The translations under genes were made by a program, and so were the position numbers. The notes under the pieces are model-generated. The model was not told the origin of the DNA. It did no database searches and saw nothing but the letters and a program-made list of their open reading frames with translations. This document shows, one piece after another, positions 1 to 25,663 of a DNA stretch of 64,000 nucleotides. Positions within the stretch are counted from its first letter, which is position 1. Each line of letters starts with the position of its first letter. This stretch comes from Myxococcota bacterium (GTDB lineage Bacteria; Myxococcota_A; UBA796; JAJRTE01): the NCBI GenBank assembly GCA_024278455.1, contig JAJRTE010000237.1:2955-66954 (forward strand), given 5' to 3'.

Positions 1-468
1 GGCCCGATGGTGGTGGCTCGAGACATCGCCCATGCCAAGCTCAAGGAACGGTTGGACGCCGGGGAAGGCCTGCCGCAGTATGTCAAGGACCACATCATCT
101 ACTACGCCGGGCCGGCCAAGACGCCCAAGGGCATGGCCTCCGGAGCGTTCGGCCCCACCACCGCGGGCCGGATGGACCCATACGTGGGCCTCTTCATGCA
201 GCACGGCGGCGGCTACGTCTCGCTGGCCAAGGGCAACCGCAGCCAGATGGTCACAGACGCCTGCAAGCAGCACGGTGGGTTCTACCTCGGCTCCATCGGC
301 GGACCAGCCGCACGGCTCGCCCAGGACTGCATCACCAAGGTGGAGGTCCTCGAGTACCCCGAACTCGGCATGGAGGCCATCTGGCGCATCGAGGTCAAGA
401 ACTTCCCGGCGTTCATCCTGGTGGACGACAAGGGCAACGACTTCTTCGCCTCGTTGAAAAAACGGTAG
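1..468 (+). CDS. fumA: Class I Fe-S fumarate hydratase, C-terminal part (5' end outside window)
   Basis: [48 protein letters not shown] are typical of the class I fumarase C-terminal domain. Confidence 0.92.
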
Positions 469-18980: not shown

Positions 18981-19052
18981 TACCGGGCCAAACTGGCCAT
19001 TCCGCCCACTGCGGTCTTGCCTACACCCTGATACCGGCCAGCAACTCCAGCG
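18981..19052. repeat. 72-bp imperfect direct repeat, left copy
   Basis: Ungapped match to 24863-24934 at 61/72 nt. Confidence 0.9.
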
Positions 19053-19073: not shown

Positions 19074-22000
19074 CTACTGTCGAACGCGCGTTTCGCTGTC
19101 GGCAAAAAAGCCGTCGAAGAGCATTTCAGCAGGCTTTCGAATCTCCGGGGCCACCGCCGCGAGGGTTTCTCGCGACCGCAGGTGAGCAGCCAACAACGCC
19201 TCGCGAAGCGGTACCCAACGCTCTCTCAGCCCAACGCTCTCGAGCAGCTTCCGGGCATCGTCTGCATGACGCTTTTGCACTGCGAAGGTGAAGAACTGGA
19301 GGACATTCGGCCAGGCGGCCTCCAGTTCTCCAGGCGTACATTTCTTCAGGAAACGGCGTGCGTGATAGGAGGCGTCCTCCCACGCATCCTGCCGGACGAA
19401 GATTGTCGCCAAGAGAAGCGTCGCGTCCAGGTCATCAGGATCGTATGTCACCGCCTTCTGTGCCAACTGCTCCGCCTCGACAAGATCCAGGCTGTGCGAG
19501 TGAATGAGGCGCGCGAGTTCTTTGGCAACTTCCGCGTCCCTCGGATCCAGCACCAGGGCCTGCCTGAGCAGCTTCTCTGCGTCGCGCGCCCTCCCCGTGC
19601 GGTCAAAGAGCAGGGCCAGCGCCAGACGACTCCTTGTGTTCTTGTCGTCGAGCGCCATCGCCCTACGATATGCGGCCTCAGCATCCACATCCAGTCCATC
19701 GTCCTCGAGCTGTTCCCCAAGCATGGTCCATGATTCCGCGTCATCCGGCACCCGCTCGAGCGCCTTGTTGAGTGCCTCCCTCGCCTCTACCGGACGGCCG
19801 TCACGATCCAGCAACCTGGAGAGCACATACCAACTCCCGGAGACATCCCCATCCTCCCTCGCCACCTTGATCGCTTCGCGAACGGCTTGCTCTGCCTCAG
19901 ACAGCTCATCCAGGCGAAAAAGCGCCCCAACGAGGCCGATCCAGCCGTCGATGTCGGAGGGTTCGAGCTGCACAGCCTTCTGAAAGGCCTTCTTGGCCTC
20001 CGAATAGTGCTCCAACTCGTTCCTCAGTTCACCGTAGGCCGTCCAGAAAAAGGCATCCTCGGGCTCGAGTTCCAAGGCTTTCAGCAGGGGAGCCACTGCC
20101 TCCGGAGCCCGGTCCAACTGCTCCAAGACCTCACTCAGGCTCAACCAGGCGAACGCATCCTCCGCTTCGAGCGCTGTGGCCTTGCGAATGGTCGACTCTG
20201 CTTCGGCCAACCGGCCCTGAGCGATCTGCACATCGGTCAGCGCCACCAAGGGGACGCTTCTTGTCGGCGCCAACTGCACGGCCTGGCGCGCCGCTTTTTC
20301 TGCCTCGTCGAGTTCGTCGAGCCGTATGAGGGAGCGAGAGAGGCTTGTCCACACGAAAACATCTTTGGGGGCAATAGCCAACGCCCGACGATAGGAGTCT
20401 ACGGATTCCTTGTACCGTTCCCTGCCCTGCAGGACATCGCCCAACCCCTTCCACGCCTTGACTGAATCCTGGTCAAGCACAATCGCGTGACGATATGATG
20501 CCTCAGCCTCCTCGAGTTGGTCTTGCATGAACTGAGACGATCCGAGATCGACCCACGCCGACGCGCTGTCCGGTTTCAGTTCCACGACTTTTTGATAGGC
20601 TTGTTCCGCCTCCTCGTCCTTGTCTTGAAGAAAAAGCACATCTCCGAGGGCGTTCCAGACGCTGGCGGAATCCGGGGCCAACTCGGTCAGCCGACGATAC
20701 ACGAGCGCTGATTCCTCCCATTTGCCCCAACCGTCCAGCACGTTTGCCAACCTCTCCAACAGGATTCGATCATCTGGGAATGTGTAACTCACAGAGCGGA
20801 TGATGGCAAGGGCCTCCCGCTCCCTTCCTATGGTCATGAGTATGGCGGCGACGAACATCTGGAGGTATGCCAACAAGCGCCTGCGAGTTCCCGTCAGCGC
20901 GCCCATAGTCGAGAAGGGATCGCCCTCGAACCCGAGACGTTCCCAAACTGCCCTGAAAAGCCGTTCGGCTTCCGGATCGCGCGCCATCGCCTGATGGATT
21001 GCTTTCCTGGCACCGCGAAAATCACCTCTGGCAAGAAGCACTATCCCTCGACCACACCATTGGACGGAGGTTTCAGGTTCGTGGCTCAAGCCTTCCTCAA
21101 AGTCGACGTCCGACAACTGAGATGCCACTTCAGCGCTGAACTCAAAGACTCCCTGGCTCACCTGCCGCACAATATCAAACAGATTTCCGTCCACATCATT
21201 GGTGCCAAACGCCTGGTCAGTCCTGAAGAAGACCCGCAACACCCTTCGAGCAAACTCAAGGAACTGCTCGTCCACATCGTTGATGTCGAATTCCCGCGCA
21301 GCCCCGGCGAAGTCCGATCTGAGCAGAAGGACTCCAGCACGGGCCAGTTGCAGACAGACGGTCGCGACGCTGTCGATCTGCGCGGCGTCCTCCTTAGAAG
21401 GCCCGTTGTACCCTTCGACAAGGAACGCACAGAGATTCTTGATGAGCCTGAGGATGAACTCAGGGTCTGCCTTCAGACATTGGTCAAGCTCCACGGAAAG
21501 CTCGAGAAAAGTAGCGGCCTTGGGCAGATTCACGAGGCGAGCGATCAGTTCCAACTCAGGATTCCCATAGGCCGAGGCGGCGGCGCAAGCCCCTTCGAGG
21601 TCCTCCAGGTTCACCATGAAGCCCTCGCCTACCGCTCTGAACGCTTGCTCTGCAACAGGTGCGGTGACAAGTCCCGATAGCGCCGCCTTTGCTTGGCTCA
21701 ACTCAGCTGTGAGTTCAGAGAGGGCTTCAGGCGTCAGCTTATCAAGCTCCGACGCGATCTGCTCCTTCTCCTCCAGGGTTTTTCCCGGGTGCCCACAGAG
21801 CGTCGCTCCGAATTCTTCGGCTGTGGTTGCATTCCACGAGATCGGGGCCGCCACCACCTTTTGATGGATCTCTTTCAAGCGCTGAACACGCTCGGCAAGT
21901 TCGAGCAGTTCGGGCTCTTCGGCTGGATCCAGCAGCTCCTTCATCCGCCGGCGGAGTGGACGGTCTTCGGCCAAGGCCATCACGGCGTCATGCTCGAGGG

Positions 22001-23360
22001 TCCGGCGAAGCCGACGATCCTCCACCGTTTGGGCCAAAGCCAGGCTGTATTCGGCACGGCGCAGCCGGCTCAGGCGGTCACGCCTGAAGGGAGTCTTGAG
22101 CTGCTGAGTTGCCCGATGTCTTAGCTCTTCAGGAGCGCTGACCAGGCGGAGGAACTCTACCAACCAAATGAGCCGCCGACGCATCCTTCGACTGGCTCGC
22201 ATCAGGTACCAAATATTGAAAAAGCGCTCCGAAAGCTGGTAACCGGATTTCTTCAAACGCTTGCGGGTCTCGAGGTCGAAGGCGCGCACACGCTCCACAA
22301 TGCCCAACTTCATCAGCCGGTCGATCTGGGAGGAGACCACACGATTGTCCATACGCAACCTGGCGGCGAGATCTCCGGCGTTTATCGGATGCCAATGAAT
22401 GGCCATAGCATCCACCACCTGCTGAGCTTTGGGGGCGAGGGCCTCAAGCCGAGCTTTGTAGAGCGGGGTCGCTTGGTCCAGGAGGCTCTCGAGGTAGGTG
22501 CGCACATCCCCCTGCTCACCTTGGGCAAGCACGCTGTACAAGAGTACGAGGGTGCGGGGGTTGCCGCCTGAAAGGGTATAAATGGGGCGGATTCGCTCAG
22601 GGGACGTCTCGAGGAGTTTGATCACATAGGGGTTCCGGCTTCGTTCAGCGAGACGCTTCAGGCAGGCCATCATCTCCTCATCCGACAGACCTCCCAACTG
22701 GTGGATCTGGAAGAAATCGTAAAAGGGGGCGTCATATTTCCGGGTCGCTTCCGTCTGAAAGATACTCGATCCGATGATGAGGATGTTCGGCTCTTCGGAC
22801 AGGAGTTCTCGAAGCGCCCACTGGTCGGCTGAGAGACGTTCCAGGATCAAGTGAAAATTGTCGAGCAAGAGAACCAGACCGCGCTTTTCGTTCTGGGCCC
22901 AGGTCAGCAGCAGCTCCAGCGAACGTGTCGCGAGCGTATCCTCCGGCAGTCGAAGCAGCGCCTCTACCGCCTGGTCCAAGGCATGAGCGGCCTCCGGGCG
23001 GCCGTTGGCCTCGAGCGTATCGCCCAAAGAATCCAGGCAGTTGAGCCAGAGGTCCGAGAGCCTCGAGACATTGTACTGTTCCTCGGGAAAGGTGAGGGGC
23101 AGCCAACGTTCTGCGAGTTCAGGGTCATCCTCGATGGAGAAGCAAAGACGCCGCAGGAGCGTGGTCTTGCCCATGCCGCGTTGGCCCACCAGGAGATGAT
23201 GCTGAGGGGCCTGCCCCGGAGCTTCCCGGCGAAGATCCTCCAACAGACGATCATGCAAAGGGATGCGTGCGACGAAATCGTGGATCAGTTCGTCACGACT
23301 GAGCAGTTTTGGGTTGTAGATCGACACCCCCTTGAGGGGCTCTTCCAAAGGATCATGCAT
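19074..23360 (-). CDS. Large STAND-type P-loop ATPase with winged-HTH and TPR array (1428 aa)
   Basis: Walker A GQRGMGKT, Walker B LLLDN, SGGNPR, wHTH segment (INAGDLAARL..VSSQIDRLMKLGIV), more than 10 TPRs (e.g. AWVDLG..EEAEASYRHAI.LD); ATG overlaps the upstream stop by 8 nt. Confidence 0.85.
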   Translation of the reverse strand: MHDPLEEPLKGVSIYNPKLLSRDELIHDFVARIPLHDRLLEDLRREAPGQAPQHHLLVGQRGMGKTTLLRRLCFSIEDDPELAERWLPLTFPEEQYNVSRLSDLWLNCLDSLGDTLEANGRPEAAHALDQAVEALLRLPEDTLATRSLELLLTWAQNEKRGLVLLLDNFHLILERLSADQWALRELLSEEPNILIIGSSIFQTEATRKYDAPFYDFFQIHQLGGLSDEEMMACLKRLAERSRNPYVIKLLETSPERIRPIYTLSGGNPRTLVLLYSVLAQGEQGDVRTYLESLLDQATPLYKARLEALAPKAQQVVDAMAIHWHPINAGDLAARLRMDNRVVSSQIDRLMKLGIVERVRAFDLETRKRLKKSGYQLSERFFNIWYLMRASRRMRRRLIWLVEFLRLVSAPEELRHRATQQLKTPFRRDRLSRLRRAEYSLALAQTVEDRRLRRTLEHDAVMALAEDRPLRRRMKELLDPAEEPELLELAERVQRLKEIHQKVVAAPISWNATTAEEFGATLCGHPGKTLEEKEQIASELDKLTPEALSELTAELSQAKAALSGLVTAPVAEQAFRAVGEGFMVNLEDLEGACAAASAYGNPELELIARLVNLPKAATFLELSVELDQCLKADPEFILRLIKNLCAFLVEGYNGPSKEDAAQIDSVATVCLQLARAGVLLLRSDFAGAAREFDINDVDEQFLEFARRVLRVFFRTDQAFGTNDVDGNLFDIVRQVSQGVFEFSAEVASQLSDVDFEEGLSHEPETSVQWCGRGIVLLARGDFRGARKAIHQAMARDPEAERLFRAVWERLGFEGDPFSTMGALTGTRRRLLAYLQMFVAAILMTIGREREALAIIRSVSYTFPDDRILLERLANVLDGWGKWEESALVYRRLTELAPDSASVWNALGDVLFLQDKDEEAEQAYQKVVELKPDSASAWVDLGSSQFMQDQLEEAEASYRHAIVLDQDSVKAWKGLGDVLQGRERYKESVDSYRRALAIAPKDVFVWTSLSRSLIRLDELDEAEKAARQAVQLAPTRSVPLVALTDVQIAQGRLAEAESTIRKATALEAEDAFAWLSLSEVLEQLDRAPEAVAPLLKALELEPEDAFFWTAYGELRNELEHYSEAKKAFQKAVQLEPSDIDGWIGLVGALFRLDELSEAEQAVREAIKVAREDGDVSGSWYVLSRLLDRDGRPVEAREALNKALERVPDDAESWTMLGEQLEDDGLDVDAEAAYRRAMALDDKNTRSRLALALLFDRTGRARDAEKLLRQALVLDPRDAEVAKELARLIHSHSLDLVEAEQLAQKAVTYDPDDLDATLLLATIFVRQDAWEDASYHARRFLKKCTPGELEAAWPNVLQFFTFAVQKRHADDARKLLESVGLRERWVPLREALLAAHLRSRETLAAVAPEIRKPAEMLFDGFFADSETRVRQ

Positions 23361-24561
23361 CTTCACACCTCAGCCAGTAGGCACGCAGCAAGGGGGAACG
23401 AAATCTGTATACGCCGCCGAGCCGAGTCAAGTATCCATCCATCTCGAGCATTCGCAGCAGGAAGGAGAGTTCCTCTTCTCGAACTTCATGGTCCTGAATG
23501 TAGCGGCCAGGCCTCTCCAGGAGGAGACTCTGCGGCACCCCGGCATCAGAGTGTGCGACTGTGGAGAGCAGATCTCGAGCCCACAACGCCTGGGGACGTT
23601 CGAGTTGCTTGTTGAGACGCTGCCTCCAGTAGTCAAAGTAGGTCGCCGCAGAAGGCTGAAGCAGAGACTCAAACGCCTCATCGACGCGGGCGGAGGTGAT
23701 TGTCGATCTTGATTGTGCGGCGTAGTCCCTGAGCCGGCTGAAAATCAATTGGAGGAAATAGGGTGAGGACCACTCGAGACGTTCGACCACCCTGGCTCGC
23801 GCTTCCGATGGGAAATCCAGATCGTAACTCCTGGCCAGAGCCCTCAAGAATCTATCGGCCGTGTCCGCCCCAAATGGGCCGAGTCCAATCAGGAACAGAT
23901 CATTGATGGTGTCGCCCATGTTGTAGCGAGCCGCGATGGTGTCCAGCCCCACGGAACCCGCCAGGATCCAGCGGAAATTGTCGGCCCCGTCCCAGCCCTG
24001 CCGAATCTCCCGGAACCAGTTGAGGAAATTGCGGGCCCGACTGGCCGTATCATCCTGTCGCAGGAGTTCCATGATGAAAATCGGCAGTTCGTCGATCATG
24101 AATAGCCACCGTCCGGGCAACCGGGACAGGCTCTCCACCAGCGCTAGACCGAGCTGCTGCCACGCACCTCCACCGGTGGCGTGATCGAATTCAAAAGAGA
24201 GGCCGTAGCCCGACATTTTCTTGGGAACGAACCTCTTTACCCATTGCGCCAGATCACTCTCCAACAGCTTTCTCACCTGTGACCGCGCCGCTTCGATCGC
24301 CGAGACTCGTTTGAAGAGGCGTTCCAGGAATTCGATCTCCGTCGTGGCGCTCGAAACCGTAAGCATGGCTGCGCCGAAATCGTGCTTTTCTGCTTGGTCT
24401 TCCAAACGTCTCAAGAGCGAAGTCTTGCCGAGACGACGCGGCGCGAGGAGCAAGATACTATCGGTTTCCAGGTGTCACCAGAGCCGAGTTTGTTCGTCGT
24501 CCCGATTGAAGAAATCCCCGCCAAGGGCAGGTCCTCCGGTTCTGTTTCTTGGGTTGGACAT
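23353..24561 (-). pseudogene. Small STAND-type ATPase with wHTH (402 codons), interrupted by in-frame TGA at codon 29
   Basis: AGGAGGAAAG RBS, ATG 24561; MSNPRNRTGGPALGGDFFNRDDEQTRLW*HLETDSILLLAPRRLGKTS; Walker B FMIDE; TGA at 24477-24475. Confidence 0.8.
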
Positions 24562-24690
24562 CTTTCCTCCTCTTTTCCGGTCTCAATCATCCACGGAGTC
24601 CGGCGAACGACCGGGGTCAATATCAAGCCGAAGCTTCTCCCTCACAAGCAGAGGACGAGGGACGGCCGAGGCGCGGCCGCCAGTAGCCAC

Positions 24691-24770
24691 ACCAAGCAGT
24701 GCGTACTTCATTCTTGCCGTACACCATGATAGCCGTACACCAATTGTGCCGTACACCAATTGTGCCGTAC
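24691..24770. repeat. Five tandem 16-bp repeats, consensus ACCAATTGTGCCGTAC
   Basis: GTAC recurs every 16 nt (24703, 24719, 24735, 24751, 24767); two copies identical, three degenerate. Confidence 0.92.
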
Positions 24771-24787
24771 ATCATTTTTGAAGTCAA
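24759..24787 (-). promoter_or_regulatory. sigma70-type promoter for the ATPase pair; -10 lies inside the tandem repeat
   Basis: Minus strand TTGACT (24787-24782), 17 nt, CACAAT (24764-24759). Confidence 0.55.
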
Positions 24788-24862
24788 GCAGCAACAGGCC
24801 TGGAAAAAAACAAACCCGGCTCCGGCTCTCCGGTCCCACTGGACAAAACTCCTTGAAGGAGA

Positions 24863-24934
24863 TACCGGGCAAGAAGGGCCATTCCGCACGCCGCCGTCTT
24901 GCCTACGCCCTGATACCGACCAGCAACTCCATCG
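24863..24934. repeat. 72-bp imperfect direct repeat, right copy
   Basis: Shares GGCCATTCCGC, GTCTTGCCTAC, CCCTGATACCG and CCAGCAACTCCA blocks with 18981-19052. Confidence 0.9.
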
Positions 24935-25093
24935 CTGGTTGCTGTCTCGACGAGATCAGGCGCTCGAAGCCGAGTTGCTTCAACTCTTGTGTGGCTTGGC
25001 TGGGCAAGGCGTGTGGGATGGGCGTAGGGCAGTGAACGTCAGACCAAATACCGGCTCCACTCGGGACGCCCGGGCCACTCGTCCGGGACGCCA

Positions 25094-25663
25094 TCAAAAC
25101 TCGATCCCGGCACGGGCCATCAACCCGGTATCGAAGTAGTGGCGGACCGGGGTCATCTCGGTGATGAGGTCTGCCCGGTCGAGAATCGACGCTGGCGCCC
25201 GCCTGCCTGTCATCACCAATTCGAACGGCCTTCCCGCGTGCTCGTACCGATTCAGGAGGTCCAGCACCTGTTTTTCCTCGAGCAGGTGGAATGGCACGGC
25301 GGAGAGTATCTCGTCGAGCACGAGCAGTCGATGACGAGGTTTGGCGATCAACTCGCGCGCGATGGCCAGCCCTCGCTGGCCCTCGGCCACATCTTCGGGC
25401 GACATCCCGAAACGAAACTTCCCACCGGGCATCATGCGTTCACACCCGGTGGGAAACAGGTCGAACCCCTCGAGCGTGCGCAAAATCCGTCGTTCGCCGT
25501 AGTGTTCCTCGCCATGGTACCCCTTGTCGAATTGCACCATGGCCACCTTGAACCCGGCACCCAGTGCGCGGATGGCCAACCCGACGGCGCAGGTCGTCTT
25601 TCCCTTTCCATCGCCGGTGTAGACCTGGATCCGCCACCGCGATGAACTCTCGGCTCCGCCCAT
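25094..25663 (-). CDS. btuR: Cob(I)yrinic acid a,c-diamide adenosyltransferase (CobA/CobO/BtuR)
   Basis: IQVYTGDGKGKTT, LLVLDEI, ELVMTGR, RAGIEF. Confidence 0.93.
   Translation of the reverse strand: MGGAESSSRWRIQVYTGDGKGKTTCAVGLAIRALGAGFKVAMVQFDKGYHGEEHYGERRILRTLEGFDLFPTGCERMMPGGKFRFGMSPEDVAEGQRGLAIARELIAKPRHRLLVLDEILSAVPFHLLEEKQVLDLLNRYEHAGRPFELVMTGRRAPASILDRADLITEMTPVRHYFDTGLMARAGIEF

Follow-up and report, generated by a model that had tools for sequence, protein, structure and literature searches.

The locus described here lies in a 64,000-nucleotide (nt) stretch of DNA from a Myxococcota bacterium (contig JAJRTE010000237.1, positions 2,955 to 66,954 of the forward strand), and this whole stretch is referred to as the window. 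On its minus strand, a cassette of two ATPase genes is preceded by a tandem array of 16-bp repeats that coincides with the predicted promoter of the cassette. An initial annotation had proposed two possible functions for these repeats, either a slippage-based expression switch or an operator array for a repressor, and our analyses indicate that they are probably operators by which the cassette would control itself. The two genes, the array and its individual sites are located as follows.

19074..23366, minus strand: gene of the large AAA_16 (STAND/ORC-like) ATPase, 1430 amino acids, intact, with a long TPR array
23353..24561, minus strand: gene of the small AAA+ ATPase of about 402 codons, PF01637/AAA_22-like, with a winged helix at the C terminus
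24689..24784, minus strand: array of six abutting 16-bp sites, from a sequence parse and Tandem Repeats Finder
24784-24769, minus strand: site 0, ACTTC.AAAAAT.GATGT, overlaps the -35 hexamer
24768-24753, minus strand: site 1, ACGGC.ACAATT.GGTGT, identical to site 2, holds the -10 hexamer
24752-24737, minus strand: site 2, ACGGC.ACAATT.GGTGT, identical to site 1
24736-24721, minus strand: site 3, ACGGC.TATCAT.GGTGT
24720-24705, minus strand: site 4, ACGGC.AAGAAT.GAAGT
24704-24689, minus strand: site 5, ACGCA.CTGCTT.GGTGT

Architecture of the repeat array

Read along the minus strand from 24787 to 24691, the sequence consists of TTGACT, a gap of 11 nt, two copies of GTACGGCACAATTGGT (24770-24739), and then GTACGGCTATCATGGT, GTACGGCAAGAATGAA and GTACGCACTGCTTGGT, exactly as the initial annotation had described it. 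Tandem Repeats Finder reported a period of 16 with 3.9 copies (24715-24775) and also a period of 32 (24702-24780). The 16-bp repeat is real and no chance pattern. The natural register of the unit is a 16-bp dyad-like site, ACGGC-N6-GGTGT, rather than GTACGGC followed by nine further positions, and the earlier list of units can be refined by a sixth, more degenerate one, site 0, at the -35 hexamer.

The differences between the units are concentrated in the spacers, where 14 of 36 positions deviate from the array consensus, as compared with 7 of 60 positions in the half-sites (six sites; Fisher p=0.004). When sites 1-4 are taken alone, the mismatches amount to 8/24 in the spacers versus 2/40 in the half-sites. 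Such a combination of kept half-sites and variable spacers is the pattern expected of selection for protein contact at the half-sites. The spacers are rich in A/T (5-6 of 6 positions in sites 0-4 and 3 of 6 in site 5) within a window of 64% GC content, and as CACAAT, TATCAT and AAGAAT all represent A/T-rich spacers, each unit carries a -10-like hexamer.

In the 7.03-Mb genome (315 contigs), GTACGGC at 16-bp spacing has no further occurrence, and there is no second copy of the array, of the 5' leader or of the terminator segment. Likewise, full sites with an A/T-rich spacer are confined to the array within this genome, and the element is thus local to the cassette. Without the spacer filter, ACGGC-N6-GGTGT occurs 56 times in the genome versus 21-38 times for controls, which is uninformative in a GC-rich genome, and the array is singled out only once the A/T-spacer filter is applied. 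Across genome contigs, the two-unit pattern GTACGGC-N9-GTACGGC, which is too short, gave only single chance matches in high-GC genomes. In metagenomes, a three-unit scan matched more than 120 tandem repeats with periods of 8 or 16 bp that contain GTACGGC but are unrelated, none of them being array-like or beside a homologous gene. Many of these metagenome matches are (GGTACGGC)n 8-bp microsatellites, which are common in soil and sediment contigs (L132, L144, L163, L176, L202, L228 and others). In several metagenome contigs, such microsatellites are trailed by TGTCACCCTGAGGGAGCGGTAGCGACCGAGGGGGCC, suggesting a dispersed element that is unrelated to the array of the window.

Phased sites and predicted promoters at homologous loci

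For comparison, we assembled 32 loci with homologues of the small ATPase (34-50% protein identity) from genomes of the phylum and the class to which the window belongs, from one further phylum and from public assemblies, which by their record names include Acidobacteriota, Planctomycetota (Isosphaeraceae), Myxococcota and one gammaproteobacterium. The large AAA_16/TPR gene lies directly downstream in almost every one of these loci. For the closest homologue (P0002, 50% identity), the contig of 2.5 kb stops about 90 nt 5' of the gene, which is too short for its operator to be read.

When the 160 nt 5' of the start codon were analyzed by model-free autocorrelation in 22 loci, lag 16 alone stood out, with z=12.5 versus dinucleotide shuffles; the window's copy is among these 22 loci, but its array is outside the scored 160 nt. 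Over 31 loci, the lag-16 sum reached 583 in the proximal region versus 390 at 360-520 nt upstream and 381 within the gene, and other lags gave sums of about 400-440. A position weight matrix with the consensus GTTGTACAACAAattT, which was refined on 27 loci with a non-overlap of at least 10 bp as the sole spacing constraint, detected 54 sites in these loci versus 5.7 in shuffles, and 28 of the 30 spacings between successive sites were exactly 16 bp, versus 0.015 in shuffles.

The arrays of this family comprise 1-4 phased, non-identical sites, mostly 2-3, and end 10-60 nt from the start codon. Their unit is an abutting palindrome, ACAAC-N6(A/T-rich)-GTTGT, and many sites are 5/5 symmetric. Between loci, the two half-sites change together, as in ACAGC/GCTGT (L278), ACGAC/GTCGT (L258), GATAC/GTATC (L260), GCAAC/GTTGC (L253, L263) and ACTTT/GAAGT (L280). 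At the array ends, the first unit is typically represented by its right half only and the last unit by its left half only, as exemplified by L271 with CGC-ACAAC.AAATCT.GTTGT-ACAAC.AAATCC.GTTGT-GCGG. We favor the ACAAC-N6-GTTGT register because the array ends hold half units and because the half-site centers are 11 bp apart in this frame, which is the usual geometry of helix-turn-helix dimers.

Two of the homologous loci have further repeats near their arrays. At L264 (G163:C47), a (GACTCG)n tract with variants extends over more than 150 nt, about 110-300 nt 5' of the start of the small ATPase and just upstream of the array. On the gammaproteobacterial contig (L273), a longer inverted repeat, CTACAGATAAATT...AATTTATCTGTAG, surrounds phased ACTAC sites 70 nt 5' of the start.

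The sites of the window and of about nine homologous loci coincide with predicted promoter elements. In the window, the control region between the array, the small ATPase gene and the upstream genes contains these elements:

24782..24787, minus strand: -35 hexamer TTGACT, last four bases shared with site 0
24759..24764, minus strand: -10 hexamer CACAAT, 17 nt from the -35 hexamer, formed by the last right-half-site base and five spacer bases of site 1
24562..24688, minus strand: 5' leader, unusually long with 127 nt, with the ribosome-binding site AGGAGG at 24571-24566
24625-24653, minus strand: weaker promoter-like match TTGTGA-17-GATATT (8/12), in the leader downstream of the array, 86 nt 5' of the ATG
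24804..24861, minus strand: terminator-like elements, a hairpin CTCCTTCAAGGAG with a T-rich tail, and a GC-rich segment followed by TTTGTTTTTTT (24814-24804)

TTGACT-17-CACAAT (9/12) is the sole sigma70-like match in the region 24300-25200, for which shuffles predict 0.1 matches. About 9 of the 32 homologous loci contain TTGACn-16..18-TAC(A/G)A(C/A/T) at the equivalent place, with TTGACn found in L259, L264, L267, L268, L271, L278 and L290. The promoter call of the initial annotation is therefore plausible, with the start itself being a prediction, and transcription would begin near 24752. In the roughly nine homologous loci, the -10-like TACAAC, TACAGC or TACAAA straddles the junction between two sites, so that the putative promoter is built into the operators. 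In the window, the predicted -35 hexamer overlaps site 0 and the -10 hexamer lies within site 1; the repeats start within the -35/-10 spacer and include the -10 hexamer, so that -10 hexamers could be swapped by unit loss, but the spacer length itself is independent of unit number.

The RNA fold of the leader is not unusual (z=-1.16), and an Rfam scan of the leader at a permissive threshold gave only sub-threshold chance matches. The second promoter-like match in the leader, if active, would escape the operators. Of the terminator-like elements, the hairpin CTCCTTCAAGGAG was called by the scan, and the TTTGTTTTTTT element was read from the sequence and not called by the scan. These elements would end the upstream cobO operon and insulate the cassette promoter from it.

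The cassette and its candidate DNA-binding domains

The cassette has a size of 5.9 kb, consists of the two ATPase genes only and separates cobO from a HEAT-repeat gene. It has a lower GC content than the flanks, and both sides are bordered by direct repeats. The features that bear on its insertion and on DNA binding are:

24863..24934: 72-bp direct repeat, upstream copy, extends over the 3' end of the 64-codon open reading frame
18981..19052: 72-bp direct repeat, downstream copy, with 85% identity to the upstream copy
24903-25097: 64-codon open reading frame, overlaps the cobO stop
22233..22436, minus strand: MarR-like winged helix of the large ATPase, residues 311-378, with a putative recognition helix at residues 341-353, NRVVSSQIDRLMK

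No integrase is encoded inside the cassette. In a genome of the same genus (G001, C61 about 24544-24637, locus L274), the only one of this genus that was compared, the HEAT-repeat gene and cobO converge at a distance of about 60 nt, and this site is empty, having neither the cassette nor the 64-codon open reading frame nor the 72-bp repeat. Since the cassette is missing from G001, it is an insertion, and promoter and array came with it. Cassettes of this type occur in 17/401 genomes of the phylum, in 13/182 of the class and in 1/401 of another phylum, and the locus of the window itself is carried by one assembly alone (a cluster of one). For such a mobile cassette, a portable and self-contained control region makes sense. 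At one homologous locus (L289), a ParE/RelB toxin-antitoxin pair (1787-2331) is encoded directly upstream of the cassette and divergent from it, which fits an island or defense-neighborhood context.

The small ATPase has weak profile matches to AAA_22, AAA_35 and PF01637-like models. Its reading frame contains an in-frame TGA at 24477-24475 (minus strand), which is codon 29 (RLW, stop, HLETDSILLLAPRRLGKT), so that it reads LW-stop-HL where homologues have LW[R/Q][R/H]L. This TGA may represent a nonsense mutation, result from an assembly error or be read through, and the stop may be recent. The homologues start 36-45 codons before Walker A, most of them 36-39 codons, and in the window a TTG at 24453, just ahead of Walker A, is available and could permit a restart of translation. 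The start of the large ATPase gene overlaps the end of the small ATPase gene. In searches with PADLOC and NCBIfam and against PDB sequences, neither ATPase reached the threshold, and neither contains a recognizable effector domain.

The suggestion of the initial annotation that the winged helix-turn-helix domains of the cassette itself recognize the repeats fits our domain predictions, as a MarR-like match was found in the large ATPase and winged helices were modeled in both ATPases. Residues 311-347 of the large ATPase match MarR/MarR_2 winged helix-turn-helix models with E about 4e-5, just below the Pfam cut-off, and its homologues give faint to weak HTH_20 or MarR_2 matches at the equivalent place. 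The AlphaFold2 model of residues 1-440 of the large ATPase (predicted local distance difference test score, pLDDT, 78.7) consists of an AAA+ module followed by helices 312-323, 330-337 and 341-353 and a beta-hairpin wing. The top Foldseek matches of this model were 2qen, the DNA-bound archaeal Orc1/Cdc6 structures 2qby and 2v1u, ORC subunits and CED-4/Apaf-1. In the model of the small ATPase (pLDDT 87.2), a terminal winged helix is formed by helices 324-336, 344-353 and 358-375 and a hairpin at 378-387. The binder is most likely a winged-helix domain encoded by the cassette, for which the MarR-like domain of the large ATPase is the first candidate and the C-terminal winged helix of the small ATPase is the second.

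A further hint comes from residue 343 of the large ATPase, which is the x in N-x-V-S-S-Q at the start of the recognition helix and a valine in the window. A hydrophobic residue 343, a position chosen post hoc, goes along with a G at half-site position 3/4 in 7/7 loci versus 5/24 others (p=3e-4), and the window copy (x=V, ACGGC) obeys this rule. S-T-Q variants pair with ACTAC half-sites in 4/4 versus 5/27 cases. When about 1070 alignment columns of the two ATPases were scanned without preselection, residue 343 ranked second. We regard this covariation as a suggestive lead for the winged helix-turn-helix of the large ATPase as the binder, short of a finding.

Interpretation and related systems

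Taken together, the repeats are probably a cassette-specific autoregulatory operator array, for which we infer the binding, the binder, the repression and the start of transcription. Each 16-bp unit would be a dyad site with two 5-bp half-sites, the centers of which are 11 bp apart, and an A/T-rich 6-bp spacer. The six abutting sites would extend from inside the -35 hexamer over the -10 hexamer and the predicted start to about +64, with sites 2-5 occupying about +1 to +64. A winged-helix domain encoded by the cassette would bind these sites as dimers, and neighboring dimers, being 1.5 helical turns apart on alternating faces, could coat the promoter cooperatively. As the coat would cover the -35 and -10 hexamers, the start and the early leader, the cassette would repress itself. 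The -10-like hexamers would then be a by-product of the site architecture and not alternative promoters. Of the two functions considered in the initial annotation, it is the operator array that fits the lag-16 signal, the exact 16-bp spacing and the dyad data, and the slippage switch disagrees with the half-site/spacer pattern and with the non-identical units.

Several observations speak against an operator function in the window. On the family matrix, the units of the window score 6.2, 4.7, 0.2 and 2.5 bits, and these scores are weak because GG replaces, in the window, the AA that is most strongly conserved within ACAAC. The half-sites (ACGGC/GGTGT) are only 3/5 symmetric, and the -10 hexamer sits 5 nt off the family register. 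With the small ATPase being broken, the circuit may be defunct in the window, and the weaker promoter-like match in the leader might permit expression that bypasses the array. At the level of the family, a column-shuffle symmetry test of the 10-bp core GTTGT/ACAAC was weak, with the central pair alone being weakly significant, so that the dyad frame is based on the changes between loci and on the array ends. The residue-343 covariation, finally, was selected post hoc, ignores phylogeny and is not significant once 12,291 tests are accounted for, and similar scores were obtained for unrelated columns.

Due to the low matrix scores and the off-register -10 hexamer, we base the likely homology of the window's array to the family operator mainly on its position, the exact period, the dyad and A/T-spacer form and the gene context. 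The nearest array by sequence is that of L278, in which GCTGTACAGCAAAAAT has 12/16 matches to GGTGTACGGCACAATT (counted by eye) and the terminal unit GCTGTACGCAGTCGCC resembles GAAGTACGCACTGCTT of the window, and this likeness adds some support to the homology. The number of six sites exceeds that of any homologue (1-4), and the two identical sites indicate a recent duplication. The window copy is a derived version with changed half-sites, six sites, a long leader and a stop in the small ATPase.

Some of these deviations could also mean that the array is a mere relic, that is, a neutral tandem duplication in a decaying cassette, derived from an ancestral operator that is now unbound or useless. 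The in-frame TGA in the small ATPase gene, the poor match to the family matrix together with the 3/5 symmetry, the register shift relative to the -35 hexamer, and the 127-nt leader with its second promoter-like site between array and gene would all agree with decay. However, four consecutive sites have intact half-sites and diverged spacers, which points to selection after the duplications, and the large ATPase reading frame of 1430 codons is intact. The TGA, moreover, could have arisen lately or reflect an assembly error, and the TTG restart at 24453 is open. Altogether, we consider a relic unlikely.

The resemblance of the large ATPase model to DNA-bound archaeal Orc1/Cdc6 and to ORC subunits could indicate that the array is, instead of or in addition to an operator, an assembly platform, on which the ORC/Cdc6-like ATPases load and oligomerize for sensing or output, much as initiators do on origin repeats, with repression being secondary. 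Archaeal orc1/cdc6 genes adjoin their own origin recognition box (ORB) repeats, abutting sites on alternating faces would suit a continuous protein coat, and a recognizable effector domain is lacking in both ATPases. Such a platform is compatible with all observations and indistinguishable from plain repression on their basis. Nevertheless, it appears quite unlikely, as the sites are always on the promoter and leader of their own operon, which is covered by simple autoregulation. Moreover, neither an A/T-rich unwinding element nor another origin feature lies beside the array, the flanks of which are a GC-rich leader and a terminator, and there is no site elsewhere in the genome. In an elaborate version of the same idea, which we regard as equally doubtful, the array would be a DNA track that parks heteromeric ORC/Cdc6-like ATPases, one with a TPR sensor and one as a bare partner, in the form of a nucleoprotein filament. 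When the TPR arm senses a ligand, the ATP state would change and the filament would be released or remodeled, and the output would be an action on DNA or a burst of own expression. If this were true, the cassette would be a bacterial 'paired-NLR' module without an enzymatic effector, in which the number of sites, six in the window, sets the threshold.

The slippage switch of the initial annotation implies that gain or loss of 16-bp units exchanges the -10-like hexamer that faces a fixed -35 hexamer and thereby toggles expression of the ATPase pair. It is true that the two adjacent identical units form a 32-bp perfect tandem that is able to misalign, and the calculation of the initial annotation holds, as TATCAT would come to lie 18 nt from the -35 hexamer if two units were lost. 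The six sites, as compared with 1-4 in homologues, also show that the unit number has changed in the lineage of the window. However, known contingency loci consist of long perfect tracts of 1-8-bp units, whereas the unit is 16 bp long here and just two of six units are identical. The array begins at the -10 hexamer instead of filling the -35/-10 spacer, slippage does not predict half-sites that are kept next to spacers that are free to vary (p=0.004), and in the homologues, 2-3 sites that differ from one another are maintained in a fixed phase. What had been taken for 'alternative -10 boxes' are the A/T-rich central spacers found in every site of the family, and this -10-likeness therefore needs no special cause. 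As the locus is found in one assembly alone, there is also no polymorphism on record, and a slippage switch, except perhaps as a length polymorphism of low frequency, is altogether very unlikely. Binding of the sites by a host regulator encoded outside the cassette, with which the lack of significance of the residue-343 covariation after correction would be consistent, is the least probable explanation, since sites of this type accompany the cassette into distant phyla, are found only once in the window's genome, as the array, and vary from locus to locus as expected of a co-inherited partner.

The two-ATPase cassette is widespread and crosses phyla, and it has no match to a named family in Pfam, NCBIfam, PADLOC and PDB sequence searches. 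The conserved and precisely phased putative operator is the first testable handle on this cassette. The operator model predicts a DNA-binding domain and implies that the half-sites and not the spacers matter, and residue 343 may set specificity. It also replaces an appealing interpretation that lacks support, as at the locus of the window, what resembles a phase switch is better accounted for by operator architecture. With its six sites, altered half-sites and broken partner gene, the window copy represents a natural variant for studying how site number and sequence tune the circuit.

Among known systems, the operators of MarR-family and other winged helix-turn-helix dimers share with the array the overlap with the predicted -35 hexamer, -10 hexamer and start of an operon that encodes a MarR-like domain and, clearly in the homologous loci but with only 3/5 symmetric half-sites in the window, the 16-bp dyads with half-site centers about one helical turn apart. 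The cassette differs in that this domain is inside a 1430-residue AAA+/TPR ATPase and not in a small dedicated repressor, and in that the sites are joined head to tail without gaps in arrays of 2-6. In arrays of the Fur and DtxR/IdeR type, dimers bind from opposite faces of the DNA to sites that adjoin or overlap each other. The geometry is similar here, as the half-sites of adjacent sites are 5 bp apart and dimers would alternate faces and could polymerize, but proteins and motifs are unrelated and there is no apparent metal-dependent logic, so that the likeness is only geometric.

With archaeal ORB and mini-ORB elements, the array has in common that repeated elements lie directly upstream of a gene for an AAA+ ATPase with a winged helix, and that the large ATPase model matches the Orc1/Cdc6 structures 2qby and 2v1u, with about 15% identity to Orc1/Cdc6 in the structural alignment. 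There is, however, no similarity to ORB sequences, and the cassette is a chromosomal insertion without replicon features. RepA iterons, ParR-parC, TubR-tubC and omega heptads also autoregulate their own operons. Like these iterons and centromere-like arrays, the repeats studied here are tandem and phase-locked over an operon promoter, travel with a mobile unit and are predicted to be bound cooperatively; in contrast to them, the cassette has no Rep, ParA/ParM or TubZ partner, its units are dyads, and there is no sign of replication or partition. Phase-variable promoters are represented by the poly-C, TA and TAAA tracts at surface genes of Neisseria, Haemophilus and Bordetella. They likewise have repeats at the promoter, and unit number could in principle alter the -35/-10 geometry, but the units here are 16 bp long and non-identical, the array does not fill the spacer, and the variation follows the half-site/spacer pattern. 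Our full-text search of the literature for the motif, the pair of genes and tandem operators retrieved no relevant paper. Promoter-overlapping operators and phased operator arrays are a well-known kind of element, and what appears to be undescribed so far is the combination of zero-gap 16-bp dyad arrays that are conserved upstream of a mobile and as yet unnamed pair of ORC/STAND-like ATPases, with the probable binder being inside an ATPase.

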